A stretch of 64,000 nucleotides of DNA from Gammaproteobacteria bacterium (GCA_024280395.1 JAJRQG010000150.1:2091-66090); one strand, 5' to 3'; counted from the stretch's first letter, positions 1 through 58,486 are shown. Made by a program: numbers and translations. The notes: generated by a model from the letters alone, not told the origin.

Positions 1-402
1 GCGATCGGCAATGGTTTTTTCAATAGCGCCGATTGTGACTGCGCCAAATCCAATATTTAGGGTGCAAGCTTGCTCACACAATCGGTCTTGTGGGCACACT
101 CTGCCACATATTTCTGGTAAGGGATTTGTGGCATGCATCAATGCTGCTGCCTTTTCAAATTGATTGTTGCTGACCATTTCCAACCAATCAGGAATATAAT
201 TGTGCAGTGGGCACTTCCATTCACAATAGGGATTGCCACAATCTAGGCAGCGGTCTGCTTGTACTTTTAAATTGTCATCGTTGTTTTTAAAATATATTTC
301 ATTAAAATCACCCAATCGAGCTTGTGACTCTCTTTTATTGGCCAATTGTCGGTCTTGTTTTAAAAAGCTCAAGTTGTTGCCAGCAATGAATTTGTCACTC
401 AT
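1..402 (-). CDS. gltD: glutamate synthase small subunit (NADPH), N-terminal part; the gene runs off the left edge
   Basis: My translation of the minus strand from ATG 402-400: MSDKFIAGNNLSFLKQDRQLANKRES...DRCLDCGNPYCEWKCPLHNYIPDWL...EICGRVCPQDRLCEQAC. These are the two Cys clusters of the GltD N-terminus. The start overlaps the gltB stop as ATGA. Confidence 0.85.
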   Translation of the reverse strand, partial: MSDKFIAGNNLSFLKQDRQLANKRESQARLGDFNEIYFKNNDDNLKVQADRCLDCGNPYCEWKCPLHNYIPDWLEMVSNNQFEKAAALMHATNPLPEICGRVCPQDRLCEQACTLNIGFGAVTIGAIEKTIADR

Positions 403-13800: not shown

Positions 13801-13892
13801 TTTAGTTCAGCATCGGCTGCGTGAACAGATCCGACAACTGCAATACTGGCAACCAGTGCCAGTAAAGATTTTTTTATTTTTAGTGTATTCAT
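10845..13892 (-). CDS. secreted Asp-box (BNR) / sortilin-Vps10-like beta-propeller protein
   Basis: Signal peptide MNTLKIKKSLLALVASIAVVGSVHA. About 10 SxDxGxTW-type motifs (SDDGGINW, TLDGGKTW, SSDSGKTW, SDDAGESW, SRDGGKTF, SNDTGDTW, TENGGKKW, TSDYGKTW, TINGGKNW). The track start at 13904 is TTG; the ATG is at 13892. Confidence 0.85.
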   Translation of the reverse strand: MNTLKIKKSLLALVASIAVVGSVHAADAELKGKALFGDMKARQIGPALMSGRINDLESHPTNNKVIYLGAAGGGVWRSKNGGASFEPIFDDHVQSIGVIAVDPVQPDKTIWVGTGETWTRNSVSTGDGLFRSDDGGINWKKIGFEHSERISSIEINPNNRDEVYVGILGALWGDSEERGVYKTLDGGKTWEQVLYVDAGTGCSDLIMDPNNPEVLYASMWEFRRTAWSFNSGGKKSALYKSSDSGKTWNKIHNGFPEGKLGRIAVAVAPSDSNIVYSVLETENAQDNGLYRSDDAGESWQHLNGDFGLVVRPFYFSRIVVDPKNPNVLVKAGLQGSISRDGGKTFKNLGNMHGDIHDIVFDINDSDRMYVGTDGGLYRSWDGATTMEIVANLPLSQFYHISVDNETPYNIYGGLQDNGSWYGPSYSPGGIEARDWESIGYGDGFRVLRHPTKKIIYSEMQGAENVWRYNLDRDEVKTIQPLPEKGDPKLRFNWNAPIVLSANNPDRIYMGSQFLYRSNDTGDTWKKISPDLTTNDPSKQNQQDSGGLSKDNSGAENYETIFTIAESPLDEKVIWVGTDDGQVQVTENGGKKWKNVVKNIPNLPANTWVYHIEASVHDKATAYAVFDGHTANDAKPYIYKTSDYGKTWKSIVTDEIIGFSRNLQEDYENPDLLFVGTERGLFITINGGKNWSHFTKNMPQVAVHYIELQAQTSDLVMGTHGRGVIILDDISPLRQITPEVLAKKVYFFKPKPMTINEESGFGGRSSEMEYVGPNPDRNAKIVYYLQKRHIFGKTKMQVFDEQGKVIADLPVSKAKGINTVSWNGRLKRPRIAKAKTFAFGGFTTPRVPAGTYKVVFTKGKESYETQVVLKNDPESPYTDKQRAQLHEATMKLYDMTEQLAYLVYQIDSYIDAGKDTANKAMLDKLNALKETLVITTGDNYVGTVDPQLREDLSDLYSKVAGGFAPPSKPEMANLKLIKERFNQANKTFNKISKKEIKGFLATGHQVNIKSFDDFVN

Positions 13893-13908
13893 TGTAGTTC
13901 TCAATCAG

Positions 13909-15989: not shown

Positions 15990-18374
15990 ATGCTTAGAAA
16001 ATCTCAATTTGTCCTACTCCTACTATGCTTTATAACAGCCTCCCATGCTGTTTCTATTTCAGAATACACAAAAGGCATGCAAAAAAGTGCTGGGTTTTTT
16101 GATTTTTATTGGGACCAGAAGAATGGCAAAATACTTCTAAAAGTCGAAGAACTTGACAAAGATTTCCTCTATGTTAATTATTTACAATCAGGAGTTGGTT
16201 CCAATGATATTGGATTGGATAGAGGTCAGATTGGTGGGCAGAAGCTGGTTAAATTCCAAAGATTCGGCAACAAAGTTTTGCTCATTCAACCCAATTTAGA
16301 TTATAGGGCAATCAGCAACAACCCACTGGAAGTTAAAGCCGTCTCAGATGGCTTTGCGCAATCGGTAATCTGGGGCGCTGAAATCCTAGCCGAAACCAAA
16401 AACTCCATCTTGCTTGATGTCACCTCTTTCTTATTGCGAGATTCTCACGCCATCAACAATAGATTAAACCAATTGGAGCAAGGCAACTATTCAATAGATA
16501 CGAATCGTTCGGTAATATTCATGGATAACAGCAAGAGTTTCCCTGATAACACTGAATTTGAAGCGATGATTACTTTTAAAGGCAAGAATCCAGGGAATCA
16601 CCTCAGAACAGTTATTCCTTCTTCTGAAAGTTTCTCGGTTCGCACCCACCATTCATTTATTCGTTTACCTGAAGAGCCTTATCAGGTGCGCCAATTTGAC
16701 CCGCGTTCGGGAGCTATTTCTATGAACTACCAAGATTATGCTGCACCCTTGGGCCAATCATTAACCCAACAAATCATCATTCGTCATCGCTTAGAAAAAA
16801 AGAACCCTGAATTGGCAGTAAGTGATCCCATCAAACCGATTATTTACTATCTTGACCCTGGTACTCCAGAACCCATGCGTTCGGCTTTGTTGGAAGGAGC
16901 CAGTTGGTGGGCTGAAGGTTTTCTTGCTGCCGGTTTTAGCCATGCTTTTCAAGTCAAATTATTGCCAGAGGGCGCTGATGCACTTGATGTGCGTTACAAC
17001 ACCATACAATGGGTGCACCGTTCAACCAGAGGTTGGTCTTATGGTGCCAATATATCCGACCCCAGAACCGGTGAAATACTTAAGGGCCATGTTAGTCTTG
17101 GGTCATTACGCATAAGGCAGGACATGTTAATAGCACAAGGGTTGTTGTCGCCTTTTAAAGAGGGCATTAATGCCGATAAACGCATACAAAGCATGGCATT
17201 GGCTAGATTACGACAATTGGCAGCACATGAAGTCGGACACACTTTGGGCTTTACCCACAATTTCGCCGCCAGTACTGTTAACCGTGATTCGGTAATGGAT
17301 TATCCCCACCCTTTGGTTAAATTAACACCCAACAATACCATCGACCTAACAGATTCTTATGCTGTTGGACTGGGTGAATGGGACAAAATTGCCTTGAAAT
17401 ACAGCTATCAACAATTTGAAGACAATGAGAACACACACCTAAACAAGATTCTCTCCGATTCAGCCGCCAACGGGCACCTGTTTATTTCTGATCGAGATGC
17501 ACGAATGCAAGGAGGTAGTCATCCAAGCGCCCATCTGTGGGACAATGGTTCTGACCCTATTCAAGGCCTACAAGATGTATTGAAAGTAAGAAAAATCGCC
17601 TTAGAAAACTTTGGTTTAAATACCTTAAAAGATGGCGAAACCTTGTTTTCTTTGGAACAAATTCTAACACCTATTTATTTGTTTCATCGATATCAAGTAG
17701 AAGCTGTCAGCAAATTAATTGCGGGAATCGATTACCGATATGCGATTAAAGGCGAAACAAATGGTGAAAATAAAATCATTAATGGCAAACGCCAAAATCA
17801 AGCACTAACAATGCTGATGAAAACCTTGCATGCGGATCAATTGGCAGTACCCGAAAACATTCTACAGCTATTGTTACCACCCCCTGATGGAAGTTACCGT
17901 CACAGAGAGCATTTTAAACACCGCACCGGATTAAATTTTGATGCGCTTGGAGCAGCAGAAACCGCTGCACAAATAACATTGAAACTCATACTAAACCCAC
18001 AACGCGCCAACCGTTTAATCGAACAACATGCCCGCATAGAAACCATTCCAAGCTTATCTCAGGTTGTTGATACTCTCGTTAATAATACTTGGAATAAACG
18101 GTGGAACAATGACTACTACACAGAAGTACAAAATAGCATTAATGCATCAGTTCTAAAGGAGTTAATGAGCTTAGCAGTTAACCCAACGTCTTCACCTCAA
18201 GTCAAAGCCATAACCACAGAAAAACTCATTCAATTAAAGAAATCACTGTCCAAACACAAAACCCCAATGGCCAAACAAGCCGTTCGTGATATTGAAAGAT
18301 TTATCCAAAAGGGAATGCCAAAAACATCAAAGCCATTATCTATTCCGCCTGGATCGCCTATTGGGTCTTATTGA
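15990..18374 (+). CDS. secreted zinc metalloprotease (DUF5117/DUF4953-type)
   Basis: Signal peptide. HEXXH in AAHEVGHTLGFTHNF, followed by SVMDYP. 794 aa. Confidence 0.8.
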   Translation: MLRKSQFVLLLLCFITASHAVSISEYTKGMQKSAGFFDFYWDQKNGKILLKVEELDKDFLYVNYLQSGVGSNDIGLDRGQIGGQKLVKFQRFGNKVLLIQPNLDYRAISNNPLEVKAVSDGFAQSVIWGAEILAETKNSILLDVTSFLLRDSHAINNRLNQLEQGNYSIDTNRSVIFMDNSKSFPDNTEFEAMITFKGKNPGNHLRTVIPSSESFSVRTHHSFIRLPEEPYQVRQFDPRSGAISMNYQDYAAPLGQSLTQQIIIRHRLEKKNPELAVSDPIKPIIYYLDPGTPEPMRSALLEGASWWAEGFLAAGFSHAFQVKLLPEGADALDVRYNTIQWVHRSTRGWSYGANISDPRTGEILKGHVSLGSLRIRQDMLIAQGLLSPFKEGINADKRIQSMALARLRQLAAHEVGHTLGFTHNFAASTVNRDSVMDYPHPLVKLTPNNTIDLTDSYAVGLGEWDKIALKYSYQQFEDNENTHLNKILSDSAANGHLFISDRDARMQGGSHPSAHLWDNGSDPIQGLQDVLKVRKIALENFGLNTLKDGETLFSLEQILTPIYLFHRYQVEAVSKLIAGIDYRYAIKGETNGENKIINGKRQNQALTMLMKTLHADQLAVPENILQLLLPPPDGSYRHREHFKHRTGLNFDALGAAETAAQITLKLILNPQRANRLIEQHARIETIPSLSQVVDTLVNNTWNKRWNNDYYTEVQNSINASVLKELMSLAVNPTSSPQVKAITTEKLIQLKKSLSKHKTPMAKQAVRDIERFIQKGMPKTSKPLSIPPGSPIGSY

Positions 18375-25829: not shown

Positions 25830-26465
25830 TTAGAAAGACAAGTCCAAGTCTTTAAATTCAACACCGCCAATGGCAATCACGGCAAAGATACAATCAGAAT
25901 CTTGACCTGAGACCAATGTATGAGAAGAGCCTTTTGAACTAACCGCAACTTCTCCTACCTGATAGGTGTTGCCATCACTGGTGGTCACCTCACCTTGGAT
26001 AATCAACATATATTCTTTGCCCATGTGTTCATGCTCTGTGATTTTTGTGCCTGGTTTTAAATAGATTAAGCCACAATGTGCATCAGCCATATCTCCACCT
26101 GCTTGGAAGTGGTTCAAATAGGCTCCTTCAATTTTTGCTTTTTCCCAAACGGGCAGAGTAAGGTCTTTGGTTGTTTCTAATATTTCTTCAATTGTTTGAA
26201 TAGGCAATTTAAAAAACTTGGCAATACGCTGGGTTAAACCGACAAACTTTTTAGTACCTGATTGTTCGATGTGTGCAAAAATTGATTGTTTCAATTGCTT
26301 TGAGGGCTCCAATTCTGGAGCAGCTTGCGCTATATTTTCAAGTTGACTTGAAATGGTTGCCAATTTAACATCAATGTCATGGGTCATTAGCATTTCTTGT
26401 AATTCCGTGTCATCATCCGGACATATATTTCCCATCAAGTATTCAACTAATTTACTTTCATTCAT
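25830..26465 (-). CDS. ChrR-like soluble anti-sigma factor with C-terminal cupin
   Basis: Start overlaps the stop of the ECF sigma gene by 1 nt. No TM. Cupin motif GTKITEHEHMGKEYMLIIQGEV. The N-terminal anti-sigma helix region lacks the usual H-x3-C-x2-C zinc site. Confidence 0.65.
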   Translation of the reverse strand: MNESKLVEYLMGNICPDDDTELQEMLMTHDIDVKLATISSQLENIAQAAPELEPSKQLKQSIFAHIEQSGTKKFVGLTQRIAKFFKLPIQTIEEILETTKDLTLPVWEKAKIEGAYLNHFQAGGDMADAHCGLIYLKPGTKITEHEHMGKEYMLIIQGEVTTSDGNTYQVGEVAVSSKGSSHTLVSGQDSDCIFAVIAIGGVEFKDLDLSF

Positions 26466-27031
26466 TATAAGCCTCTCTTGATGTGTGAAGACGATGATTG
26501 CATTTTTTTCATGGCTGTTAATAACCGTGTTTTTACAGTGCCCAAAGCAATACCATAATCTTGAGCAATTTCAGCGCAGGTAAAACCCTTAAAGTAAGAT
26601 AACTCAATCACCAATCGTTGATTTTCTGACAATGTATTCAATGCTTTATTTAAAAATTTATGGTCTGTATACGCATCAATACAATTTACGGATTGAATTT
26701 TTTCTTCATTGTTTTGTTTTTCTGCATATTTTCTTATGGTTTGTTGTTTTCGAATTCTGTCTAAACAACGGCTTCTTACCCTTAACAACAACCAACCCAA
26801 CACGGAAGCCTTATTAGAATCATAGGCCTTGGCTTTATTCCAAACTTCAATTATCACATCATGAATAATGTCTTCTGCATCTGACTTTGACTTAAGAATT
26901 TGCGTAGCCAAACCCAACATTTTTCCCACATTGCGCTCATACAATTGTTCTAAAGCGCCTTTGTCCTTGGCACATATTTTGACAATCAACTCATTGTCAT
27001 CTTCTTCAAAATTATTGTATTTTAAGGGCAT
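26465..27031 (-). CDS. RNA polymerase ECF-type sigma-70 factor
   Basis: Region 2 (..AEDIIHDVIIEVWNKA..) and region 4 HTH (..FTCAEIAQDYGIALGTVKTRL..), 188 aa. Confidence 0.9.
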   Translation of the reverse strand: MPLKYNNFEEDDNELIVKICAKDKGALEQLYERNVGKMLGLATQILKSKSDAEDIIHDVIIEVWNKAKAYDSNKASVLGWLLLRVRSRCLDRIRKQQTIRKYAEKQNNEEKIQSVNCIDAYTDHKFLNKALNTLSENQRLVIELSYFKGFTCAEIAQDYGIALGTVKTRLLTAMKKMQSSSSHIKRGL

Positions 27032-27226
27032 ATTGCAATTTTTTGTGCGATTCTATGGTTCAATTATTAACTACGGTTAATTAAAGCACAAGCTAATCAT
27101 TAATTAATCACCATTGATTCACAAAATCTCTGTGCGCATAAATCTTTCGAAAAAAAATTGAAAAAATTTAAAGCCAAACTTTTGTTTCATGCGTATTGAT
27201 GGTACTTAACAACAAAAGGCAACAAC

Positions 27227-28651
27227 ATGAAATTAAACAAACTACTCATAACTGGCTTACTAAGCTTCTCAATAAACACAGGCTTTGCAGCCGATCACAA
27301 CGAAGCACCACAAGTAAGAATTGATCCAGCTGCAGATATCAATGACCTATACACATTCATCAACCCAAATGATTCAGATGAATTGATATTGGCCGCTACC
27401 TATGTTCCATTTGCAGGCTCAGGGTCGAAATTTTCTGATGCGGTAGAGTACAATTTTAACATCAGTAATGATGCAAACAATTACAAAGTGCTTACTTGTA
27501 CTTTTGATGTGGATGACATGGTCAGTTGTGCTTTCGATGGTGGAACACCAGTTACAGGGAATATTGGAGATACCATTCAAGGAGATTCCATGAGGGTCTA
27601 TACTGGGCTGCGTGATGATCCATTTTTCTTTGATGCTGTTGCATTTGGTCAAACGGTTGCCACCTTACAACCACAGTTCACCAACCCTGGTTCCAATACT
27701 TTCTTGGGCTTAGACACATTGGCAATCGTCATTGGAATTGATAAATCTGTACTCACCAATAACAATGCTGACCCAACACTCAGTATCTATTCAACGACCA
27801 ATCGTTTAAGTGGCGAATCATTAAATGGCAGCATTACCGGTTCATTTTATAATACGGATCAATCCGGTCATGGCTTTATGGTTGAAATTTTGCCCAACAA
27901 TCGGGTATTTGCAACCTGGTATGTGTTTGACAACCAAGGAAACCCATTGTGGCTCGTTGGAACTGGAACTTATCAGGGATTAACCATTAATCTGCCATTG
28001 CAACGATTAGATGGTGGCATGTTTCCGCCAAATTTTAATGCCGATGATGTGGTTAGAACCGATGTAGGTACATTGAGTTTTGATTTTACGGGTTGTAACA
28101 ATGCCAATGTTGATTTTCAATCCAGCAATGAAGCCGACCTTAATTCAACTTCTTTACAAGTGTCTCGACTGACTTCAATCGAAGGAAATCCCTGTGGAAT
28201 TGTAAAAAATGGTCAGATTGATCGCATGGGCAGGCCAGCAATCAATACCGCATTGATTAACTTGTTGAATGATACGGGATTAAAAGACCAGTACAACAGC
28301 GCACAAGACCCAAGCACATGGGCAGGTTTGTTTCAAGCTGAAATATCGGCAAACTTGGCCGCATTAGATACATTAGATGGTGTAACAGGGAATGCATTAT
28401 TGGATGCCGATACTTTGGCTTCAGTTCTTGTCAATGACGTGTTACTTATCAATACCAGTATTGCCACTTGTGATGCTTATTTGGCAGTTGAGTTGAATGT
28501 TGCAGGCCAATGTGGTGGTAGAACTCTTGCTCGTGATGTGATTGACGATACTCTGGGAGCAGTTGTAGGTCCTGGTGTCATCGATGGTGTGGACAACGAC
28601 AGTGCTTTCTTACAAGAATTTCCTTTCTTGGGATTGCCCAATTCACAATAA
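27227..28651 (+). CDS. secreted DUF4331 family protein with an inserted ~130-aa domain
   Basis: Signal peptide, then ADHNEAPQVRIDPAADINDLYTF (DUF4331-like start) and later IDRMGRPAINTALI. Extra segment at aa ~195-324. Confidence 0.7.
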   Translation: MKLNKLLITGLLSFSINTGFAADHNEAPQVRIDPAADINDLYTFINPNDSDELILAATYVPFAGSGSKFSDAVEYNFNISNDANNYKVLTCTFDVDDMVSCAFDGGTPVTGNIGDTIQGDSMRVYTGLRDDPFFFDAVAFGQTVATLQPQFTNPGSNTFLGLDTLAIVIGIDKSVLTNNNADPTLSIYSTTNRLSGESLNGSITGSFYNTDQSGHGFMVEILPNNRVFATWYVFDNQGNPLWLVGTGTYQGLTINLPLQRLDGGMFPPNFNADDVVRTDVGTLSFDFTGCNNANVDFQSSNEADLNSTSLQVSRLTSIEGNPCGIVKNGQIDRMGRPAINTALINLLNDTGLKDQYNSAQDPSTWAGLFQAEISANLAALDTLDGVTGNALLDADTLASVLVNDVLLINTSIATCDAYLAVELNVAGQCGGRTLARDVIDDTLGAVVGPGVIDGVDNDSAFLQEFPFLGLPNSQ

Positions 28652-28721
28652 TACTTTAACTCAATCTAAATGTGCCTATTTTAAGTGATAGGCGCATTTT
28701 AATAACTTTTTGGAGAATATT

Positions 28722-30008
28722 ATGAACAAAAAAACAGTCCTTAACTTTATTGTTTTATTCCTGTATTTCGGTTTGATTATAGGTGTGGTTTTACAGCTTA
28801 TTTCATGCAAAAGCACTGGAAACAACCTCATCACAGAGAATTCACAAAAGGAATCACAAGAACTTCAATCTGTTAAAAACTGGATCTCAAAACAATGGCC
28901 AGGGAATGCAGCAACATATAAAACCACAAACAGCTCTGTTTATTTGGCCAATTTAAATTCATCCATTGAGGTTTTTAACAGGCTGTACAACAATCAAAAC
29001 AAAACCAGTTATGGTGCACAACTTGCATCAAAACTGTATTTAAGATATAGAATTTTGGGCGATTTTAACGATGCCACAAAAGCATTAGAAACCATACAAA
29101 CCGCTAGCCAATTGTCACATACTGATGCAAATATTCATTATACCCTGGCAATCATTCAATCAGGTTTTCATCAATTCAAATCAGCGCTAAGTTCACTAGA
29201 AACAGCAATGGCAATGGGCGGTAATAACAAGCAAATTGCATTGTTGAAAAATGAAATCAGATACTCACTTGGACTGTATCAGCCTTATGATTTCATCATC
29301 AAAGAGCCAGGAACCAATAACTTAACCAAGGCGAAATATGCTTTATTGAACAACCATTTTGAACAGGCCAGTCATTTCTACAAAAACTCTATGGATAACT
29401 ACAATGACACCGATCCTTTTAAACTCTCATGGTTGCAACTACAACAAGGCATTGCTTTTTTACGTTATGGCGATCCAAAGACGGCCAATTTATTTTTCCA
29501 AGCTGCACACAATCGCTTTCCTGAATATTATCTGGTTACCGAACACTTGGCAGAAACTGAATTTCTTTTGGGTCATTTAGAAAGGGCAAAGAACCTTTAT
29601 CAATTGGTTATTCAACAAACCAACAATCCAGAATTTTATGCACAATTGGCAAAAATAGAATCTTTATTGGGCAATCACCAATCTAGTAGTAAAGCCCTAT
29701 TAATGGCCGAAACTGAATTCGATCAGCTCATTGAACTCTATCCCAAAGCATTGGGTGATCATGCCATCCAATTTTACATCGACAACCAACACTTCTCAAC
29801 AGCATTGAATTTGGCCAAAATAAATTTAGACAACAGAAAAAACATAGAAAGTTATGAGTTGCTCATCAAAACTGCATTGGCCAATAACGATGTCAAGCTG
29901 GCCTGTGATACCTATATGCTGGCACTGAATTACAAAGTCAGGCCTTTAGAATTCATTCACCTTTCTAATGAGTTATCTTGCGAAAACAGTCCAACCAACA
30001 CCCAATGA
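28722..30008 (+). CDS. TPR-repeat lipoprotein
   Basis: GGAG 7 nt before the ATG at 28722. Lipobox LQLISC. The remainder is helical TPR-like repeats. Confidence 0.65.
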   Translation: MNKKTVLNFIVLFLYFGLIIGVVLQLISCKSTGNNLITENSQKESQELQSVKNWISKQWPGNAATYKTTNSSVYLANLNSSIEVFNRLYNNQNKTSYGAQLASKLYLRYRILGDFNDATKALETIQTASQLSHTDANIHYTLAIIQSGFHQFKSALSSLETAMAMGGNNKQIALLKNEIRYSLGLYQPYDFIIKEPGTNNLTKAKYALLNNHFEQASHFYKNSMDNYNDTDPFKLSWLQLQQGIAFLRYGDPKTANLFFQAAHNRFPEYYLVTEHLAETEFLLGHLERAKNLYQLVIQQTNNPEFYAQLAKIESLLGNHQSSSKALLMAETEFDQLIELYPKALGDHAIQFYIDNQHFSTALNLAKINLDNRKNIESYELLIKTALANNDVKLACDTYMLALNYKVRPLEFIHLSNELSCENSPTNTQ

Positions 30009-32798: not shown

Positions 32799-34172
32799 AT
32801 GAAAAAAATTCATTTATTATTTAGCTTAGGAGCTTGTCCGAGAATAGAAAACATACTCCAGAAAATCTGGATTTGGCCAGATTTTTCACTAATTCTCGTT
32901 AAATATGCCTATATTCTCCTCAAATTAGTGAAAAACCTGACTCAAACCAGCTTTCCTTCGCTACGATTCCTATTCTCGGACAAGCTCCTAATCATTACTA
33001 TTGCCGTTACTTTAAATACCAAAGCCATTGATTTTGTTGTTGACGTCAACGATGACGTTTTCCTTTCAGGGGATATTAACCCTGGAGATGGACTTTGCCA
33101 GACACCATTTACATTAGAATGTAGCCTACGCGCAGCAATAGTAGAAACCAATGCACTGCCTGGATCTCATCGAATAATCTTGAGCAATACTAACTATGTG
33201 CTAAATCAACCACTTCTAATCACCAACAGTGATGTACAAATTATTGGGACTGGCATGAATCAGACAACAATAGATGGAAACATGAATGATCAAATATTCA
33301 ACATGTTTGAATCAAATGTTACTGTTAAAGAATTAAGCCTTATTAATGGTAAAGCAACAGTGGCGAATGGAGCAGGTGGCGCTATATATGCCAATGGAGG
33401 TTCTCTACCTACGGCATCTCTAACAATAGAACGCGTTAAATTTAGAAATAATAGTGCCAATACGGGCGGCGCACTTCGTACATTAGATATAACTGTCAAT
33501 ATTAACACCAGTATTTTTGAAAACAACTCATTGGAAGACTTGGGGATATCTAGCTTGTACGGTTCAGCCATTTCTGCTCGTCGCAGCAACATGAACATTT
33601 ATGATTCTAGCATTTATTTAAATAGCAACGGATCCAATACAATATATAGTACTAAGGGCAATATATTTATGCAAAATACCACTGTAAGTGCCAACAGTAG
33701 CATTGGACTCAGAACTGAGAACTCAACATCAAGAATAAACTTCAGTACTTTCAACAATAACCCAACAAACTTTTCACGATTTAGCTTTGATGGCAGCCAG
33801 CAAATGTATATTGGTCATTCAATCATACAAAATGCAACAACTCTAAATTGCGGTTCTATAGATAAACCCATTTCCTTGGGGCACAATGTTAGTGATGATG
33901 TTTCATGCGAACTAATAGATTCTACTGATTTGGAATCAACAGATGCACAACTCGCAGGCCTAACAGACAATGGAGGCCTAGCGCTAACTCACGAGCCAGC
34001 CCTGACAAGTCCGGCTATTGACAATGTTCCCATTGTAGACTGTCTTGAGATTGACGGCTCCACATCTTTATCCCATGATCAACGAGGCTTAACTCGTCCC
34101 TTTGGTTCGGCGTGTGATAGTGGGTCGATAGAATACATGTCTGCTCTCATATTTGAAAATGGTTTCGAATGA
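32799..34172 (+). CDS. secreted right-handed beta-helix protein with CSLREA-type N-terminal motif; signal peptide interrupted in frame by a MITE
   Basis: LECSLRAAIVETNALPG motif; degenerate ~23-aa N-rich repeats; ends ...ALIFENGFE. Codons 11-64 derive from the inserted element listed next. Confidence 0.7.
   Translation: MKKIHLLFSLGACPRIENILQKIWIWPDFSLILVKYAYILLKLVKNLTQTSFPSLRFLFSDKLLIITIAVTLNTKAIDFVVDVNDDVFLSGDINPGDGLCQTPFTLECSLRAAIVETNALPGSHRIILSNTNYVLNQPLLITNSDVQIIGTGMNQTTIDGNMNDQIFNMFESNVTVKELSLINGKATVANGAGGAIYANGGSLPTASLTIERVKFRNNSANTGGALRTLDITVNINTSIFENNSLEDLGISSLYGSAISARRSNMNIYDSSIYLNSNGSNTIYSTKGNIFMQNTTVSANSSIGLRTENSTSRINFSTFNNNPTNFSRFSFDGSQQMYIGHSIIQNATTLNCGSIDKPISLGHNVSDDVSCELIDSTDLESTDAQLAGLTDNGGLALTHEPALTSPAIDNVPIVDCLEIDGSTSLSHDQRGLTRPFGSACDSGSIEYMSALIFENGFE
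32829..32988. mobile_element. 160-bp MITE with perfect terminal inverted repeats and TA target duplication
   Basis: The 22-nt ttaggagcttgtccgagaatag (32826-32847) is the exact reverse complement of ctattctcggacaagctcctaa (32970-32991). TA is on both sides (32827-28 and 32989-90). No ORF of its own. Confidence 0.75.
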
Positions 34173-34185
34173 GATAAGATAGAAA

Positions 34186-34209
34186 AAAAGGGGCAAGTTA
34201 ACCCCTTTT
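34186..34209. terminator. bidirectional rho-independent terminator
   Basis: aaaagggg-caagttaa-cccctttt, with an A-run and a T-run on either side, between convergent stops 34172 and 34249. Confidence 0.65.
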
Positions 34210-34248
34210 ATGACTGTCAATGAGCATCAAGAAAAATTTCTTGTTAAA

Positions 34249-36519
34249 TCACTCAAAACCGTTTTTAAACAGTATATCAGTAATTGTACATTCTAAAGGT
34301 ACATCGAAAGCCTCTGTTTCATCACCTAAAGTATTGCTGTTTCCAGAACTGGCACTCAACCCTAGACCTCTTTTTGCAAAGCCTTTCCAAATAGCACATT
34401 GATTCACGCTTGCATTATTCGCTACATCAGCTGCTAAAATCGCATCCCTTCCTTGAATAAAACTGGGAGAACAAGATTGTAATTTAAGACCATCAATAAC
34501 CAACTGCATGGCAATATTGTTACCCCCAGTTCCATGATAAATATCTGAATCAAAACCATAAACTTCAATTAAATTCCAATATACCTCCCATAACATTTCA
34601 GCCCAAACCGACCCCACACCATGTGGAATGGAAACCGATTGTATGTCAGCAAATGTATGTAAATTTATTGTCATATCCGTGGTATAAGGATATTCACGAA
34701 TACCAGAGGTATTGTTGCCAGCATAGGTACCCATCGCTCTTAAAGTTGTAGCAGTCTCACTACTTTGAGCGGTCAAAACCAAGGCGAAAAAGTCACTCCA
34801 ACCTTCTCCCATTTGTTCATCATTACCTAAACAACTGGCATTTGAGGGTCCTCCTGTTAATCGATTCGAAATGCCATGACCATATTCATGTATAATAATA
34901 CCGTTATCAAGATCACCGTCTCTATTTTTTTTCAATACAGCCATTGTAATATCCACACTATTAACCAGTTCGGCCCTGATTGTATTGCCATTGGTCTGAC
35001 CAATGAATATTGAAGGGATGGTTACTGACCCTCCATTTACACCCCCTCCCATACTCAGCAATCCATCGCCTTGATTATTAATTACCATAGCAGCAATAGC
35101 TCCTGCTTGTTGTGCATTCAATACTTTAAGACCAAATTCACAACCTCCTCTATCAATGAGTGCAATCTCCCCAGCTGTAAATCCAATCAGTGGTTGGCAT
35201 GCGTCTGAAAATGATCCTCCATTTATATTATCATTGTCATTTACTTGCTCTAAAACTCCAGTAATGCCGACCGAATCTAATGTACCTCCAAAAGAAGCGC
35301 CATTTATCATATAGGATCCAGCAATTGATGCTGGTGTATTAACCAGTAGCCCAGGTGCCGCTAAAAACGTGAACATCTGCATCCTTGGTTGAAACCCATC
35401 TGGTGGTGTAGAAAAATTGGCATTATTGTTACCTGAACCATCTTGGGCATCCGCATTAACTGCATCATTTCCCGAACCACCATTTCCATAATTGTTTGAT
35501 TGGAAATTACCTGCAACTTCATCAAAACCATACTGATACAAAATATCATGAATAACATTATTCCAATAAAACAAATTAACAATGCCAACTTCAAGATTTG
35601 TTCCTTCAGTGGGTTGTAGATTTTCATCAAACGCAAAATCAAAATTTAACAATGCACCTCCATCAGGTCTAAACCCGCCTGTATTATTTGCATCCAAATC
35701 GTCTTGTGCATTAACATTGTTTCCCCGCGTATCAGTAAATTCTGCACCAGCGCTTCCATCGGTGTCATGCCATCCAAATGGTGATGCCACGGGATCTGCA
35801 ACATTACTAACCAATTGATGGCTCGACCCATTTGCTGTAGGGCTTTCATAGGGTTGAGGGAACACCCGGTAGTCCTCGTTGACTGTCCAATTATCCGAAG
35901 CTATCACATCTCCATTTCCAGCATCAACACGTATATTCCACCAAGCATCTGGTAATTGAATATGCATATCCCAAGCCAATATTAGTTGGTTTTTTTCATT
36001 CAATTCATAGACAAGTTTAACTGGAATTTCTTTACCAGACAATGATGAATCAATAAACACGGCTGCTTGATTAGATGATGGACCATTTGACCTCAATAAA
36101 TGTACGCTTCGATTCATTGAATTAAGGCTATTCAAGGCTTTATGAATCGCATCTATGACTTTAATTTTTGGTCTGACTTGCAATCCTTTCGCTGAAACAT
36201 TAGGAATGAAATTATTGTTTATAAGAAATATTGAATTGTCTTTATTCAAGTGTATTTGCAAATCATGATTGTGAACTTCTATACCTGAGTAGAACTGTCT
36301 CATGTAGATATGTGTTAATCCATTATTTTTGCTGATATAACTGTTCTGAATAACAGCATCATTAATATCATTTTCTGTAATCCCTAACTCACTCAAATGA
36401 TCCAACAAATAGTTTCTAGCTATGTTGTTTTTTTCATTTAATTGAGTTTGTAATTCTGAAGAAAATGCCGAAAAAATAAAAAACATTTGGATAAATAGCA
36501 CAAAATATTTTAAACGCAT
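34249..36519 (-). CDS. secreted M36 (fungalysin-type) zinc metalloprotease with FTP propeptide and PA domain
   Basis: Signal peptide. HEYGHGISNRLTGG HEXXH motif and ..GEGWSDFF... Ends ...DILFKNGFE. Confidence 0.85.
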   Translation of the reverse strand: MRLKYFVLFIQMFFIFSAFSSELQTQLNEKNNIARNYLLDHLSELGITENDINDAVIQNSYISKNNGLTHIYMRQFYSGIEVHNHDLQIHLNKDNSIFLINNNFIPNVSAKGLQVRPKIKVIDAIHKALNSLNSMNRSVHLLRSNGPSSNQAAVFIDSSLSGKEIPVKLVYELNEKNQLILAWDMHIQLPDAWWNIRVDAGNGDVIASDNWTVNEDYRVFPQPYESPTANGSSHQLVSNVADPVASPFGWHDTDGSAGAEFTDTRGNNVNAQDDLDANNTGGFRPDGGALLNFDFAFDENLQPTEGTNLEVGIVNLFYWNNVIHDILYQYGFDEVAGNFQSNNYGNGGSGNDAVNADAQDGSGNNNANFSTPPDGFQPRMQMFTFLAAPGLLVNTPASIAGSYMINGASFGGTLDSVGITGVLEQVNDNDNINGGSFSDACQPLIGFTAGEIALIDRGGCEFGLKVLNAQQAGAIAAMVINNQGDGLLSMGGGVNGGSVTIPSIFIGQTNGNTIRAELVNSVDITMAVLKKNRDGDLDNGIIIHEYGHGISNRLTGGPSNASCLGNDEQMGEGWSDFFALVLTAQSSETATTLRAMGTYAGNNTSGIREYPYTTDMTINLHTFADIQSVSIPHGVGSVWAEMLWEVYWNLIEVYGFDSDIYHGTGGNNIAMQLVIDGLKLQSCSPSFIQGRDAILAADVANNASVNQCAIWKGFAKRGLGLSASSGNSNTLGDETEAFDVPLECTITDILFKNGFE

Positions 36520-39234: not shown

Positions 39235-39684
39235 CTATTTAGGGCATGGATTATAGGCAACCGCAGCAGGAACATATGTACAAGCCCACTGTAAAGAAGC
39301 TCCACTAGTAACACCAACAATTGGTGTCCAAGTAAGTACGCCAGCATCAACATCGGTGTTTGCTTGTCCTTTTGAGCCCAATGCACAATTATAGCGAACA
39401 ACAATGACGCCATCTGTTACAGTTATGGTATCTACACATAAGCCTGTAGCATCTGCGGCGGGTATATGGCCAGTACTATTCGTGATCCCAGCCAAGGTAT
39501 CTATTTCCGCATAGGAGACTGTGACTCCTGTCTTATAGGCGGCTGCCATAGCATTGCCTTCATTTGCTAAGGTCCGTTTGGTATAATCTTGGTAGGCAGG
39601 AATCGCATAGGCCATTAAAATGCCAATGATTGCAATGACAATCATTAATTCAATTAGGGTGAATCCCATTTGTTTATTTTTCAT
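39235..39684 (-). CDS. type IVa pilin (major-pilin type), paralogue 1
   Basis: MKNKQMG|[16 protein letters not shown] prepilin leader and N-methylation motif. C-terminal disulfide loop C-x11-C-PK. Confidence 0.9.
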
Positions 39685-39867
39685 CTCGATCAACTCTGTT
39701 TATAAATTAGGAAAACAACAACATTGTCATCCTTTGTTAATTACTAATAATAGCCTAATCAATAATATACTTTGAAACCATAAATGCCCGCATGAACTGA
39801 GCAAAATCTATACAAATCACAGAATAATGAAAACTCTGTCACAAAATGCCAACTAACCACAATTTTA

Positions 39868-40332: not shown

Positions 40333-40785
40333 TTATTTAGGACATGGATTATAAGCAGCTGCAGCAGGAGCATATCCACAAGTCCATTGTAAAGAGGCTC
40401 CACCAGCTCCAACAACAGGAGTCCAAGTAAGTACACCCGCATCTACATCGGTGTTAGCTCGGCCATTTGAGCCTGTAGCACAATTATAAGCAACTACAAT
40501 TACACCATCGGTTACAGTTATAGAGTGTACACATAAACCAATAGCAGCTGCGCCACCAATACCAGCTAAACCATTGCTTAATCCTGTCAATGTATCAGTT
40601 TCTGCATAAGCAGTACTTACTGCCAATTTATAACCTGCAGCCATGGCATTTCCTTCATTGGCAAGAGTACGTTTTGTGTAATCTTGGTATGCAGGAATTG
40701 CATAAGCCATTAAAATACCGATAATCGCGATTACGATCATTAGTTCGATTAGTGTAAAACCTGCCTGTCTTCTTTGATTTTTCAT
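40333..40785 (-). CDS. type IVa pilin (major-pilin type), paralogue 2
   Basis: MKNQRRQAG|[16 protein letters not shown]. The next ~40 aa are identical to paralogue 1, and the C-terminus is conserved ([13 protein letters not shown]...[17 protein letters not shown]). Confidence 0.9.
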
Positions 40786-53640: not shown

Positions 53641-55920
53641 CTATTCCGCAGAACTTACAAGAGTGGACAAATATCGTTCATCATCAATAGACCACCATTC
53701 ATTGGACAAAAGTTTACACTCATTGGCGAGATCTAAAGCAAGTAATCGTTTACCCAAGGCAAAATTGGCTTTTGATTTTAACAACATCAATGGATAGGAA
53801 AAAGGATCGAACTCGAAAGAATCCTCAAGTACCATCAATGCCTTCTGTGGATTGTCCAAGTCTAGATATTGCTCTGCAAGGAGGTTATTTACTTCAATTA
53901 TCACTTCGCCATCTTGTGTGTTCTTAGCTAATTCTTTGGTCGTTAGCAACAATGTAACGGCTGTTTCTTGCTGGCCTTGCAGCAGATATAGTCTTGCCAA
54001 CTGCTTATTTAAACGTGGCTGCAACCTTACTTCACCAGTCTCATCAATGTGTGCCTGAACTTGGGAAATCAAATCGATCACACCTTCAACTTTATTTTGG
54101 TCAAGAATTAAATCTAAACTTAATAACTTATTGGTCAGTAATGCACTTTTATTTTCTGCCAATTCAGCAAATCGTAAATGTGCTTTCAAACCCATTTCAG
54201 ATTTCACCCATTGTTTTTGAACCCGACTAAGATCCACGGCAAATTGTTTTGAAATTTGCAACATCGCATTGTAACCAATCTCGATGGCAATTTTTTGCAT
54301 TTCTTGATTTAGCAATGATGCCTTTTCGAAATACCCTTGAACCATCAATACATAAATAAGTTCGTTTAAAGTAGCACCAATTCCCAGTTTATAGTCCAGG
54401 GTCTTACATATTGCTAACGATTGCTCCAAATGATGAATGGACTCCATATACTTAGATTGGTGTGTGGCAATTCGTGCCAGAGTCGTGTGAATTTTGGCCT
54501 CACCCAACAAATCTCCCAGTTTAGAATACAATGACAAAGATTTTTGGGCAGATTTTTGAGCTTCTTCAATGTATCCCATTTTTTGTAAGATGCTGGCTTG
54601 TTTTTGATAGGTGCTTGCCAGCAATTCTGGATTTAATCTCTCATCTATACTGCTTTCTAACTCATTGAGCAAGCCTAAAGCTTTTTTAAATTCTGTTAGT
54701 TTGGTGTAAGTAAAACTGAGGTTGAGCTTTATCTTTTTCAATTGAGGATAGTCTTTATTGGCGTATTCACTAAGAACAGATTTATACAAATCACGATTCA
54801 CTTCATCCTTGCCCAAAATATTATAAATCAAACCTTTGATACTCTGAGCTTCGATTTTCAACTGTGGATACGTATCTGTTTTTAACACAGTATCAAGCAA
54901 CGCCAATCCTTGTTGTTGTTTTCCCAGTGCACTTTTCACCCGTGCCAGTTCCAACTTAGCCAATAAAAAGTCTGGTTTTTTCTGTAAACACAGCTGATAA
55001 TAGTTCTCTGCACTATCGAACTCTCCCTGTGCATAGCTCGCCAACCCATGCATATAAAGCTCAATCAAATAAGAATCATTTGGAATCTGTGAGTCAATCG
55101 CACCCAGAGGATTGCTTTCTACAAACACACTAGACAGCCACTTGCTAGCAGCTCTCATGGCCAAAGCTAAATTTTGATTGGTAAAAGAACGACTTTGTTT
55201 CAATTGTGATTTATTAGTGACAGATAATTCAACTGTATATGAATGATCATTCTGAATCGTTTTTGAAGTCACTACTTGCAGGTTTGGAGAAATTCTCCAT
55301 TGTGTACTGATATATTGCTCACGGTTTTGATATTTGGGCCTCTGATCTATGTTTTTCAAATATACATTGTCACTCATGCCAAATACCTGGCCCAAATAAA
55401 CAGCAGCAGATGTATTCAACCATCCTTCATTACCACTTGCATCCGCAGATGAAATAATCAACAACAATGAGTTAGGCTTATTTTCTGTAGACCGTTTATT
55501 TACAACTGCAACAATGAGCACTATAAACAACAACATTGCACCTATCACATAGGCCTTAAATCTTGAAACTTTGGGATTTGAACCTGGTCCTGTTGGCGAC
55601 TCGTCAAGTAACGAAACATCTGAGACAAAAATAAAACCTTTGCCATAAGAAGTTTTGATAAAATCGTCCTGATTGTGCTCTGAAAACAATTTACGCAATT
55701 TTGATATACTTTTATCAATAGAATTTTCAGTCACATATTTTCCTGACCACACTTTTGCTATAATGTCGTCCTTAGAAAAAACTTTATTTGGATTTTGAAC
55801 AAATAAAAACAATAGATCAAAGAGTTGCTTACTTAACGGGATGACTATTCTATTAAAAGTCAATTCTTGCTTGTTGACATCTAAAGAAAATTTATTAAAT
55901 TGATAGTTCATTGATTGCAT
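53641..55920 (-). CDS. ToxR/CadC-like membrane-bound transcriptional regulator with large periplasmic TPR domain
   Basis: N-terminal OmpR/PhoB-type winged helix (..LSKQLFDLLFLFVQNPNKVFSKDDIIAKVW...SIDKSISKLRKLF), one TM (AYVIGAMLLFIVLIVAVV), then ~600 aa of TPR-like repeats. ATG at 55920 or 55911. Confidence 0.75.
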   Translation of the reverse strand: MQSMNYQFNKFSLDVNKQELTFNRIVIPLSKQLFDLLFLFVQNPNKVFSKDDIIAKVWSGKYVTENSIDKSISKLRKLFSEHNQDDFIKTSYGKGFIFVSDVSLLDESPTGPGSNPKVSRFKAYVIGAMLLFIVLIVAVVNKRSTENKPNSLLLIISSADASGNEGWLNTSAAVYLGQVFGMSDNVYLKNIDQRPKYQNREQYISTQWRISPNLQVVTSKTIQNDHSYTVELSVTNKSQLKQSRSFTNQNLALAMRAASKWLSSVFVESNPLGAIDSQIPNDSYLIELYMHGLASYAQGEFDSAENYYQLCLQKKPDFLLAKLELARVKSALGKQQQGLALLDTVLKTDTYPQLKIEAQSIKGLIYNILGKDEVNRDLYKSVLSEYANKDYPQLKKIKLNLSFTYTKLTEFKKALGLLNELESSIDERLNPELLASTYQKQASILQKMGYIEEAQKSAQKSLSLYSKLGDLLGEAKIHTTLARIATHQSKYMESIHHLEQSLAICKTLDYKLGIGATLNELIYVLMVQGYFEKASLLNQEMQKIAIEIGYNAMLQISKQFAVDLSRVQKQWVKSEMGLKAHLRFAELAENKSALLTNKLLSLDLILDQNKVEGVIDLISQVQAHIDETGEVRLQPRLNKQLARLYLLQGQQETAVTLLLTTKELAKNTQDGEVIIEVNNLLAEQYLDLDNPQKALMVLEDSFEFDPFSYPLMLLKSKANFALGKRLLALDLANECKLLSNEWWSIDDERYLSTLVSSAE

Positions 55921-56036
55921 GATAACATTATTTATCAAACTAACTAAACTTTAAATTTCAAATAAATAATCAAGATTGGTTGAACTTCTATGAAAACGAG
56001 ACCTCAAATTATTCATACTAAAATTCCGAAACAAAG

Positions 56037-58416: not shown

Positions 58417-58486
58417 ATGAGACCTTTGTAGCTCTAGTACAACTGTATCGACAATCTTAAAACTTTACAATATGGAGAAAAGAATC

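Follow-up and report, generated by a model that had tools for sequence, protein, structure and literature searches.

A short C-terminal GFE tail on unrelated exported proteins of Lysobacterales: a candidate address tag

Eight attributes have been set out for the small C-terminal sorting signals of prokaryotes (Haft, preprint 10.1101/2023.06.07.544157, section 5). Here we describe a C-terminal peptide, the GFE tail, that displays six of these attributes; three of its carriers are encoded within 64 kb of one contig (attribute 2), the 64,000-nucleotide stretch that was analysed as a whole and that we refer to as the window. The two attributes absent from the GFE tail are a hydrophobic transmembrane segment after the motif (attribute 4), as the stop codon comes at most five residues past GFE or 12-17 polar residues follow, and a basic cluster at the end (attribute 5), the tail being acidic with no Arg/Lys cluster. 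A preliminary description of this DNA had reported neither a transmembrane helix nor a basic tail after the motif in the three window proteins, and indeed the stop follows GFE directly in each of them. The transmembrane helix and the basic cluster are the features that mechanistically define all small sorting domains characterised so far, and the GFE tail has neither.

The three tails in the window are ALIFENGFE on a beta-helix / choice-of-anchor Q protein (34143-34169, + strand; stop TGA at 34170-34172), DILFKNGFE on an M36 metallopeptidase (34252-34278, - strand; stop TGA at 34249-34251) and ENVFVNGFE on a BNR/sortilin propeller protein (61241-61267, + strand; stop TGA at 61268-61270). With the residue ahead of each tail included, the corresponding ORFs at 32799-34172 (+), 34249-36519 (-) and 58472-61270 (+) terminate in SALIFENGFE, TDILFKNGFE and NENVFVNGFE. 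Six-frame translation of the window yields [ND]GFE four times, and three of these occurrences are the exact termini of the three long ORFs; the window proteome (46 plausible proteins, 18,986 aa) contains three instances of NGFE, each of them C-terminal, and three or more of the 46 proteins with such a terminus are not expected by chance (P = 2e-11). Synonymous codon positions differ among the three tails, which indicates that conservation is at the level of protein and is not that of a DNA repeat. Pairwise BLASTP of the last 120 residues and of the full proteins aligned only the last 7-8 residues, and the domains upstream are a choice-of-anchor Q/CSLREA beta-helix, an M36 domain with PA and FTP domains, and a BNR/sortilin propeller with a choice-of-anchor U domain. 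Comparison with Pfam and NCBIfam, together with the pairwise BLASTP, gave no sign that the C-terminal ~100 residues of the three proteins are one known domain. The ORFs at 10845-13904, 15990-18374 and 27227-28651, which encode other exported proteins, have no GFE tail; as many exported proteins of the window lack it, the tail is not needed for export as such. The preliminary description was thus right that three exported proteins with unrelated mature domains end in the same peptide, with nothing alike upstream of it, and that other secreted proteins of the window lack it.

The CSLREA / choice-of-anchor Q beta-helix protein (457 aa as annotated; 32799-34172, + strand) matches NCBIfam NF041518 over residues 382-446 of 457 (33942-34136) with 49.3 bits against a cut-off of 25, and is assigned to that family; the match ends no more than ten residues ahead of the GFE tail. 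Its homologues carry GFE, an LPXTG-like LPQTG or other tails after the choice-of-anchor Q domain. In P0145, LPQTG precedes a hydrophobic stretch and basic residues, as judged by eye and with no match to any sortase-signal model. Sec signal peptides had been ascribed to all three tail-bearing proteins of the window; they are clear by eye in the M36 and propeller proteins, but the beta-helix protein has one only when read from GTG 32928, which gives ...LLIITIAVTLNTKA followed by IDF, while the annotated ATG 32799 gives none. In homologues of this protein the signal peptide stands directly ahead of the CSLREA N-terminal motif, and GTG 32928 is probably the true start.

The secreted M36 (fungalysin) metallopeptidase, a 756-aa protein with an FTP propeptide and a PA domain (34249-36519, - strand), matches Pfam PF02128 with 475.6 bits, which places it in the M36 family, and the residues of its HExxH zinc motif (H544, E545 and H548) are invariant in 63 homologues. 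Its nearest relatives are the T9SS, rhombosortase and myxosortase M36 models. The nearest NCBIfam model is that of T9SS-dependent M36, to which the match extends no further than position 781 of the 869 in the profile; the part of the profile that covers the C-terminal domain is replaced by an 11-residue tail region. Among the matches listed, 42 of 120 M36 homologues end in the short form of the tail and another 32 of the 120 bear a longer form, ...DGFESGDTSAWSxxxP; the motif lies within 30 residues of the end in 77 of the 120 listed and is internal in one. Two homologues (P0010 and P0111) have an extra domain inserted after M36, with the tail still at the end. Those M36 carriers that bear organism names belong to Marinicella, Lysobacteraceae and Rhodanobacteraceae.

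The secreted BNR/Asp-box propeller protein (932 aa; 58472-61270, + strand) has a C-terminal choice-of-anchor U-like beta-sandwich at 60965-61228. It scores 31.3 bits against NF041766 (choice-of-anchor U), for which the curated cut-off is 32, and a phmmer search with this region retrieves proteins that pass NF041766 (P0278 at 113 bits and P0282 at 96 bits). About half of the choice-of-anchor U homologues (at least 58 of 134) carry the GFE tail; the alternative after this domain is IPTL-CTERM, for which P0237, P0278, P0280 and P0282 score above the cut-off of model TIGR04174. As far as sequence comparison goes, the tail stands where homologues have an IPTL-CTERM, LPXTG, T9SS or rhombosortase/myxosortase-type signal. 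This had been anticipated in the preliminary description, which expected a tag at a position of interchangeable sorting signals, and it corresponds to attribute 8: homologues bear IPTL-CTERM, the LPXTG-like motif of P0145, a Chloroflexi-type tail, or no signal. AlphaFold2 models of two unrelated, well-predicted proteins leave the tail unstructured, with a pLDDT of 51 over the last six residues of the M36 protein and of 55 over the last five of the propeller protein, whose preceding beta-sandwich exceeds 90. In these models the tail hangs flexible past the last folded domain.

The consensus of the tail is P-[DE]-[LVI]-[ILV]-F-x-[DN]-G-F-E, of which F-x-[DN]-G-F-E is near-invariant in family alignments made without a pattern constraint (attribute 3). 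At position -9, left free in the search pattern, 43 of 63 carriers have D or E, a bias not seen in chance matches; conservation at this position is, on the sequence evidence, a mark of selection beyond the pattern searched. What follows GFE in homologues is 0-5 residues in the short form, an extension of 12-17 residues (...GFESGDTSAWSxxxP) or a Cys-closed loop. The free Glu carboxylate had been proposed as the recognised feature, which does not hold: homologues extend past GFE, so the motif, and not the terminus, is what matters. Given that the residues after GFE vary and that a longer form exists, the GFE tail may be one signal or a family of related signals.

Of 120 metagenome matches sampled with the codon pattern, 59 lie at the end of an ORF of at least 150 aa, compared with none of ten in a matched viral control. 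These 59 carriers, otherwise unrelated (attribute 7), represent at least 32 Pfam families, among them FG-GAP, reprolysin, beta-helix, PD40, GH44, M14, spondin, PEBP and EEP nuclease; S8 and M4-like proteases, propellers and cadherin-like proteins are carriers as well. Choice-of-anchor Q is present in six of the 59, and others are homologous to rhombosortase targets (ExeM, M36). By a crude home-made hydrophobicity rule, 35 of 44 carriers have a signal peptide-like N-terminus (attribute 6) versus 252 of 1171 neighbouring ORFs (P = 2e-15, Fisher's exact test). Consistent with attribute 1, the motif is never internal in ORFs of at least 120 aa in the fetched loci (~1.75 Mb of genome and metagenome sequence from 240 loci, 72 with tail genes and 168 controls). 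A genome scan gave seven genuine matches, all from Lysobacterales (including Marinicella) or an unclassified Pseudomonadota MAG, and 113 others, from all taxa, that were short chance ORFs; these counts need to be read with the scan pattern in mind, as it was mis-specified, and our taxonomic and per-genome statistics are samples of 120 matches listed each. Among the matches listed, all carriers with an organism name are Lysobacterales; the tail is not special to one genome and is widespread in this order. The window itself is Marinicella-like. The tail matches no Pfam or NCBIfam model and we found no paper that describes it, in agreement with the earlier suggestion that it was undescribed. Overall, protein-level conservation of the GFE tail spans dozens of extracytoplasmic families that are unrelated to one another.

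Domains of the LamG, CBM and MAM-like kinds often begin with an FESGxxxxW-type sequence. The long form of the tail, ...DGFESGDTSAWS..., resembles such starts, and in the M36 homologue P0064 some 200 residues continue after the motif; the tail might hence be an evolutionary or structural leftover, either what remains (the first strand) of a C-terminal beta-sandwich that was lost, or a motif that caps or bounds a domain, with nothing acting on it in trans. However, both forms end at tight lengths (0-5 or 12-17 residues past the motif), the motif was not found internally in the fetched loci, and the tail has been kept on at least 32 unrelated families and, in two models, has no structure and stands apart from the fold. 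A decaying remnant, moreover, would not hold near-invariant residues together with D/E at -9. We therefore disfavour this reading, which appears very improbable.

The composition of the consensus (acidic, three hydrophobics, x, acidic/amide, Gly, Phe, acidic) would also suit a peptide that associates with surfaces by itself, with no machine: two aliphatic residues and two Phe flanked by acidic residues could adhere to the outer membrane, to LPS or to vesicles, with divalent-cation bridges as one conceivable means, and keep secreted enzymes and adhesins close to the cell. A flexible and exposed tail, carriers that are typical surface or extracellular proteins, and neighbourhoods in which no dedicated enzyme was found are all consistent with this. 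Nevertheless, the invariant F, G, F and E with D/N at -4 are more stringent than a generic amphipathic anchor would call for, a net-negative nine-residue peptide would bind membrane or LPS weakly, and a tail confined to one clade suggests a protein partner that co-evolved with it, and we consider self-association improbable. The range of carriers bears in turn on whether the tail marks its carrier for processing or turnover (as a pro-peptide or degron), to be trimmed, activated or degraded by a periplasmic or extracellular protease. Many carriers are themselves proteases with propeptides (M36, M4-like, S8, reprolysin, M14), and the tail is exposed; but many others, such as FG-GAP, beta-helix, propeller and cadherin-like proteins, are non-enzymes, and it is unlikely that nine flexible residues could act as inhibitor or chaperone for folds so different. 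Tail-specific proteases known so far, furthermore, prefer non-polar ends. A role in processing thus seems hardly probable.

We give roughly even credence to the reading that the GFE peptide is a modular address tag on soluble Sec-exported proteins of Lysobacterales, bound in trans by an envelope component. After export and folding, the exposed tail would be bound, probably as an extended strand, by an envelope component shared among carriers, which would send each carrier to its final place, either across the outer membrane or retained at the outer membrane or cell surface. As the tail has neither a transmembrane helix nor a basic cluster, its reader would not be an intramembrane sortase-type enzyme and would have to be a receptor, putatively in the periplasm or the outer membrane. 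No genes resembling those of secretion or sorting enzymes were seen in the window or in the neighbourhoods of tail genes. The preliminary description had supposed a dedicated machine encoded elsewhere than in the window; the one recurrent neighbour of tail genes that we saw, a membrane sensor with a periplasmic TPR domain, has a copy inside it.

One gene of the window that could be connected with the tail encodes a ToxR/CadC-like single-pass membrane regulator (53641-55938, - strand) with a winged-helix DNA-binding domain, a transmembrane helix at residues 124-150 and periplasmic TPR repeats (Pfam matches Trans_reg_C and TPR_12). It lies 2.5 kb from the tail-bearing propeller gene, and between the two sits a pair of overlapping genes (56037-58101, + strand) for proteins anchored by N-terminal transmembrane segments (56037-57248, 403 aa; 57238-58101, 287 aa), which match no Pfam or NCBIfam model and have no homologues in other tail loci. 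All-versus-all clustering found one dominant non-carrier family beside the 72 tail genes, with an output domain, one transmembrane helix and TPR_12 or TPR_10 repeats. Homologues of these sensors are present at 15 of the 72 tail loci, plus L267 (~20%), versus 1-2 of 168 control loci (P = 4e-7, Fisher's exact test); however, the control loci come from random taxa, such that a sensor-rich lineage would show the same enrichment. Six sensors are immediate same-strand neighbours of tail genes with gaps of 0-200 bp, sensor and tail genes are close within loci (P about 1e-4 by a crude test), and the tail proteins next to sensors are diverse (PD40, beta-helix, fn3, GH44, reprolysin, FG-GAP and BNR). 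Close homologues of the window regulator (E 1e-125) adjoin tail genes in L290 and L301.

TPR domains are known to bind C-terminal peptides (Hop/EEVD, PEX5/PTS1), and the tail might dock onto the TPR domains that single-pass membrane sensors with Ser/Thr kinase, ToxR/CadC-like winged-helix or TIR outputs expose to the periplasm. It would then serve signalling and not sorting, each exported carrier being a co-sensor or reporter whose presence in the envelope is thereby linked to signalling. Against this, no sensor lies close by in ~80% of tail loci, including the M36 loci L302 and L303, the BNR-family loci L314 and L315 and the M36/beta-helix pair of the window; a generic tail on dozens of proteins cannot alone make a sensor specific for its neighbour; and the sensors may simply regulate the adjoining genes for secreted proteins. 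We regard docking as rather unlikely. Under the address-tag reading, the 53641-55938 regulator is a candidate partner or regulator of the tag system, its link to the tail being suggestive only.

Among known systems, the OMP beta-signal and DegS-activating YxF, the PTS1-PEX5 TPR pair and KDEL use a very short C-terminal peptide as address or ligand, as the GFE tail would. Unlike the OMP beta-signal, which was rejected as a candidate, the GFE tail ends in Glu and not in an aromatic residue, and its carriers are soluble multi-domain proteins (enzymes, propellers and beta-helices) and not beta-barrels. It differs from short receptor-read signals in that its free carboxylate is not conserved, extensions following GFE in many homologues. 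A TPR-read signal of the EEVD/PTS1 type that depends on a free carboxylate was also rejected, and a strict carboxylate clamp is unlikely because these extensions are common; the gene neighbourhoods point to a TPR reader, as in PTS1-PEX5, as one possibility.

The C-terminal domain of T9SS substrates in Bacteroidota is similar to the GFE tail in having no transmembrane segment, in its presence on Sec-exported soluble proteins and, presumably, in being read after export. It is, however, a folded beta-sandwich of ~70-100 aa that is matched by HMMs, whereas the GFE tail is an unstructured nine-residue peptide of Pseudomonadota; no T9SS C-terminal sorting domain model (type A or type B) matched the whole proteins, or the isolated tails at E up to 10. 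With the GlyGly-CTERM/rhombosortase targets of Vibrio and Shewanella the GFE tail shares the families that are tagged (M36 metallopeptidase, ExeM-type nuclease) and hosts that are Gammaproteobacteria with type II secretion, but GlyGly-CTERM combines a transmembrane helix with a basic tail, and an intramembrane rhomboid cleaves it; the GFE tail shows none of these features.

The likeness extends to IPTL-CTERM/PEP-CTERM and other tripartite domains (substrates of exosortase, sortase, rhombosortase and myxosortase). Like these, the GFE tail is C-terminal, occurs in several copies per genome, has a short near-invariant signature and is found on otherwise unrelated carriers with N-terminal signal peptides; the homologues of its carriers in other lineages differ in their signal, IPTL-CTERM taking the place of GFE after choice-of-anchor U. 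Unlike these, it is only about 9-10 residues long and has no transmembrane helix or Arg/Lys cluster. Lacking the helix, the carrier would not be held in the inner membrane, and a mechanism based on an intramembrane or membrane-associated transpeptidase would be inapplicable; if the address-tag reading is true, the GFE tail would be a new sorting or retention tag that works with no membrane anchor.

Three genes in the window encode proteins ending in the short peptide that we refer to as the GFE tail: a beta-helix protein with a choice-of-anchor Q domain (32799-34172, + strand, 457 aa, ending SALIFENGFE), an M36 metallopeptidase (34249-36519, - strand, 756 aa, TDILFKNGFE) and a BNR/sortilin-type propeller protein (58472-61270, + strand, 932 aa, NENVFVNGFE). 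The six-frame translation of the 64 kb contains [ND]GFE four times, three of which are the exact C-termini of these ORFs. Among the 46 plausible window proteins (18,986 residues) NGFE occurs three times, each time as the final four residues; the chance of at least three of 46 proteins ending in NGFE is P = 2e-11. HMM searches identified in the beta-helix protein a choice-of-anchor Q domain (NF041518, 49.3 bits, residues 382-446) and a weak N-terminal CSLREA motif, in the M36 protein an FTP propeptide and a PA domain, and in the propeller protein a C-terminal choice-of-anchor U-like domain. BLASTP, with either the last 120 residues or the full proteins, aligns the last 7-8 residues alone, which bears out the claim of the preliminary description that these are unrelated proteins with only the tail in common; one C-terminal domain common to all three is ruled out by the HMM and BLASTP comparisons. 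The tail codons are ATA TTT GAA AAT GGT TTC GAA in the beta-helix gene, CTG TTT AAA AAC GGT TTT GAG in the M36 gene and GTA TTC GTC AAT GGT TTT GAG in the propeller gene. As synonymous positions differ among the three, the tails are conserved as protein and not as a DNA repeat, and a repeat or cassette is ruled out as their source.

The other exported window proteins lack the tail, as had been stated, including a propeller paralogue at 10845-13904 (- strand). This second BNR / F510_1955-like propeller (1019 aa, with a signal peptide) has neither choice-of-anchor U domain nor tail, and is a natural control inside the same genome: a paralogous fold, no tag. The preliminary description also gave all three tail proteins Sec signal peptides; for the beta-helix protein this holds only from the GTG at 32928, and not from the annotated ATG at 32799. 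Translation from the GTG yields a Sec-type signal peptide (...LLIITIAVTLNTKA|IDF) directly before the CSLREA motif, and homologues have a signal peptide at the corresponding place, immediately preceding that motif. The annotated start (window 32799-32930) adds a 76-residue N-terminal extension that homologues lack, and from sequence comparison the N-terminus of the deposited 457-aa protein (P0121; P-numbers denote retrieved homologous proteins) is probably too long. All three tail genes stop at TGA (34170-34172, 34249-34251 and 61268-61270), and TAA is the stop used most often in the window (TAA 24, TGA 14 and TAG 8 in 46 genes); with three genes only, this is weak evidence of a preference. 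Stop-codon read-through at the tails was rejected, as there is no conserved in-frame extension past the TGA. Just upstream of the tail-bearing gene pair, a block at 25830-30008 encodes a putative anti-sigma factor (25830-26465), an ECF sigma factor (26465-27031), a secreted DUF4331 protein (27227-28651) and a TPR lipoprotein (28710-30008), with only generic TPR matches; searches with the lipoprotein and the other exported window proteins gave generic TPR or propeller matches only. Elsewhere, two tandem type IV pilin genes (39235-39693 and 40333-40785, both - strand) have near-identical N- and C-terminal regions, suggesting a recent duplication or a pair of variable pilins.

Metagenomes were scanned with a codon pattern of two hydrophobic residues followed by F-x-[ND]-G-F-E-TGA, and 59 of the 120 matches listed end ORFs of at least 150 aa (65 counting contig-truncated ORFs); the identical pattern gave 10 matches in viral contigs, of which not one terminates an ORF of more than 30 aa. 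In a genome collection, scanned with the shifted pattern [FLSYCW][FLSYCW]Fx[ND]GFE-TGA, seven of the 120 matches listed end long ORFs. The 120 span all prokaryotic taxa, and the seven true matches come from four Lysobacterales MAGs, a 'Xanthomonas sp.' MAG, Marinicella meishanensis, a member of the same order, and an unclassified Pseudomonadota MAG. The shifted pattern acts as an accidental control, in that the true matches, among those listed, fall in one clade. M36 carriers with an organism name are from Marinicella species, a Lysobacteraceae bacterium and a Rhodanobacteraceae bacterium; the window DNA itself belongs to an uncultured relative of Marinicella, its PurH having 72-74% identity to proteins read as Marinicella and 80-95% to metagenome proteins.

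A consensus built from 63 non-redundant tails has P enriched at position -10, D or E at -9, L, V or I at -8, I, L or V at -7, F at -6, A, R, S or K at -5, D or N at -4 and G-F-E at -3 to -1. Position -9, which the search pattern left free, is D or E in 43 of the 63 tails, a bias that chance matches do not have. The 59 metagenome carriers, that is, proteins ending in the tail among the matches listed, match at least 32 Pfam families, including FG-GAP, reprolysin-type M12B, beta-helix, PD40, GH44, M14, spondin, PEBP, EEP nuclease and cadherin-like families. By NCBIfam, six of them have a choice-of-anchor Q and one a choice-of-anchor D domain, and others are ExeM/NucH nucleases or M36-like, families which elsewhere are rhombosortase or myxosortase targets; the seven genome-scan carriers add ThuA-like, M4-like, S8, FG-GAP and DUF285-repeat proteins. 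Under a crude hydrophobicity rule, a signal-peptide-like N-terminus was found in 35 of 44 complete carriers versus 252 of 1171 neighbouring ORFs (P = 2e-15 by Fisher's exact test), and several of the nine negative carriers resemble signal peptides by eye. Across about 1.75 Mb from 240 fetched genome and metagenome loci, whenever the motif was found in an ORF of at least 120 aa, it lay within three residues of the ORF's end.

AlphaFold2 gave the window M36 protein (63 homologues) a mean pLDDT of 87, falling to 75 at residues 741-750 and 51 over the last six, and gave the C-terminal 125 residues of the propeller (30 homologues) a confident beta-sandwich with pLDDT above 90, the last five residues having 55. 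The tail is thus predicted to lie outside the fold in two unrelated contexts, which fits an exposed recognition peptide. A role as structural cap is disfavoured, as both models leave the tail outside the fold. Two other possible roles for the tail are those of a surface-association peptide acting by itself and of a processing or turnover signal.

Of the best 120 M36 homologues, 77 have the motif close to their C-terminus, with a tight distribution of distances from the end: 18 have no residue after the motif and 24 have 1-5 (both short form), three have 7, and 32 have 12-17 residues in a long form, ...[IL]F.DGFESGDTSAWSxxxP. Only one of these 120 has the motif internally; P0064 has about 200 further residues beyond it. 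P0010 and P0111 have an extra domain behind the M36 domain, yet the tail remains at the very end. The long-form carriers with an organism name in this search are Acidobacteriota, and one choice-of-anchor Q homologue (P0123) also ends in the long form. The nearest NCBIfam model to the window M36 protein, that of T9SS-dependent M36, matches only up to profile position 781 of 869, and therefore the sorting-domain part of the profile is replaced by the tail. That the tail might be the remnant of a lost domain is disfavoured by these tight length classes, by the AlphaFold2 models and because the tail is conserved in at least 32 families that are unrelated.

Other endings take the place of the tail next to choice-of-anchor domains. 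An exhaustive phmmer search, with the C-terminal 125 residues of the propeller as query, returned 134 choice-of-anchor U homologues. The short tail closes at least 58 of them and longer or Cys-bracketed versions a few, while at least 24 have another ending, made up of a motif, a transmembrane segment and then basic residues. By NCBIfam, this alternative ending is IPTL-CTERM (TIGR04174, above cut-off in P0237, P0278, P0280 and P0282), and in the alignment the switch between the two falls exactly behind the end of the choice-of-anchor U domain, ...GGP[AG]. The Cys-bracketed variant, in P0174, P0197, P0211, P0222, P0255 and others, reads ...GGPAC-x-DDR-[LI]-F-x-NGFE-x(8-10)-C-x(1-2)-stop; such brackets suggest a disulfide-closed loop presenting the motif, in which case the motif itself would matter and not a free C-terminus. 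Distant choice-of-anchor Q homologues have a C-D-x-G-A-x-E motif in common and then diverge: P0128, P0129 and P0134 end in the short form, P0145 by eye has an LPXTG-like end (LPQTG, a hydrophobic stretch, then basic residues) with no match to a sortase-signal model, and further homologues have a Chloroflexi-type Y-L-P-L-x-x-R tail or none. In P0133, P0135, P0141, P0144 and P0148 the domain is followed by another short tail, hydrophobic-L-P-[LVI]-x-x-[RK] (...LFLPLTLR, ...IYLPVVIK, ...LYLPLILR), the single homologue with an organism name being from Chloroflexi; this tail, too, may be a C-terminal tag without annotation.

We compared all ORFs flanking 72 tail genes (loci from the matches listed, here given L-numbers) with one another, and one non-carrier family dominates: single-pass membrane proteins with a cytoplasmic output domain, one transmembrane helix and extracytoplasmic TPR_12/TPR_10 repeats. 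The output is a Ser/Thr kinase in L085, L196, L214, L237, L267, L293, L297 and L300 (partial in L192 and L271), a ToxR/CadC-like winged helix in L184, L234, L290 and L301, and TIR in L223. Homologues of these sensors occur in 15 of the 72 tail loci (plus L267) versus 1-2 of 168 control loci (P = 4e-7), the controls being loci from random taxa. Six are immediate same-strand neighbours of tail genes, sensors lie close to tail genes within loci (P ~1e-4 by a crude test), and the adjoining carriers come from different families. In the window, a ToxR/CadC-like regulator (53641-55938, - strand; Trans_reg_C, a transmembrane helix at residues 124-150, then periplasmic TPR repeats) is divergent from two overlapping + strand genes for membrane-anchored proteins without family match (56037-57248 and 57238-58101) and from the tail-bearing propeller gene next to them; in L290 and L301, a tail gene has a close homologue of the regulator (E 1e-125) beside it. 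In the TIR protein (L223:6945-9017, - strand) an N-terminal TIR domain is joined by one transmembrane helix to periplasmic TPR repeats, and 11 bp separate its gene from a tail-bearing gene upstream; TIR is an unusual output for a transmembrane TPR sensor.

TPR domains are known to bind C-terminal peptides in Hop and PEX5, and an alternative role for the tail would be as ligand for these sensors. We regard TPR sensors as readers of the tail as only a lead, however. The control loci come from random taxa, a tail common to dozens of proteins cannot on its own account for the specificity of a sensor, and the sensors may just regulate the adjoining secreted-protein genes. About 20% of metagenome tail loci have a sensor-type neighbour and about 80% do not; it is absent at the window M36/beta-helix pair and in L302, L303, L314 and L315, and around the M36 genes of two relatives (L302 and L303) and two BNR-family carriers (L314 and L315) we found neither a conserved partner nor additional tails.

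The peptide in the window is real and under strong selection, C-terminal, modular and flexible, and it is found on signal-peptide-bearing proteins of many families, concentrated in Lysobacterales, at the position of known sorting signals. In the mechanism that we propose, the tail would be read in trans by an envelope component, and this reading would set the final location of the carrier. A more far-reaching version, which we consider unlikely, is that of a new class of bacterial address signal: a linear, anchorless C-terminal peptide of about nine residues on Sec-exported proteins, read by periplasmic TPR receptors, with the Acidobacteriota long form as a sister signal. The receptors would include the single-pass sensors with kinase, winged-helix or TIR outputs, and one tag would serve both to route surface or secreted proteins and to signal their traffic to gene regulation.

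More than once, work on C-terminal sorting signals has opened the way to new envelope machines: sortases, exosortases, rhombosortases, myxosortases and T9SS. The tail marks dozens of families, among them proteases, nucleases, glycosidases and adhesin-like repeats, in an environmentally abundant order with plant pathogens and biocontrol strains among its members. If it is an address tag, diderm bacteria possess an undiscovered reader with a different recognition logic, a simple sequence rule would predict surface and secreted proteomes, and recombinant proteins could be directed with a nine-residue handle. If it is not, it is still a strongly selected, unannotated motif, for which an HMM or regular-expression rule would better genome annotation.

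The description of the motif as undescribed agrees with our searches: Pfam and NCBIfam have no model for it (whole proteins and isolated 21-40 aa tail peptides, E up to 10), and full-text searches of open-access papers returned nothing relevant. The tail is not a T9SS C-terminal domain, because it is unfolded and without HMM match, nor an OMP beta-signal, since its last residue is Glu and the carriers are soluble. Haft's myxosortase preprint (10.1101/2023.06.07.544157, section 5) lists eight attributes for recognising small C-terminal sorting signals, of which the GFE tail has six: C-terminal location, several copies per genome and at least three near-invariant residues, on carriers that have signal peptides, are otherwise unrelated and have homologues elsewhere with other signals or none. 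The two that it lacks, a transmembrane segment and a basic cluster, are exactly those that define the tripartite design, in agreement with the earlier observation that neither follows the motif. Every characterised small sorting domain has both, whereas the GFE tail has neither, and as it has no membrane anchor an intramembrane sortase-type mechanism is excluded. The tail thus appears to belong to no known signal family, yet to behave like one in all respects that can be assessed from sequence; judged against the open-access literature and two HMM libraries, we rate it as a candidate C-terminal sorting signal without the tripartite design.
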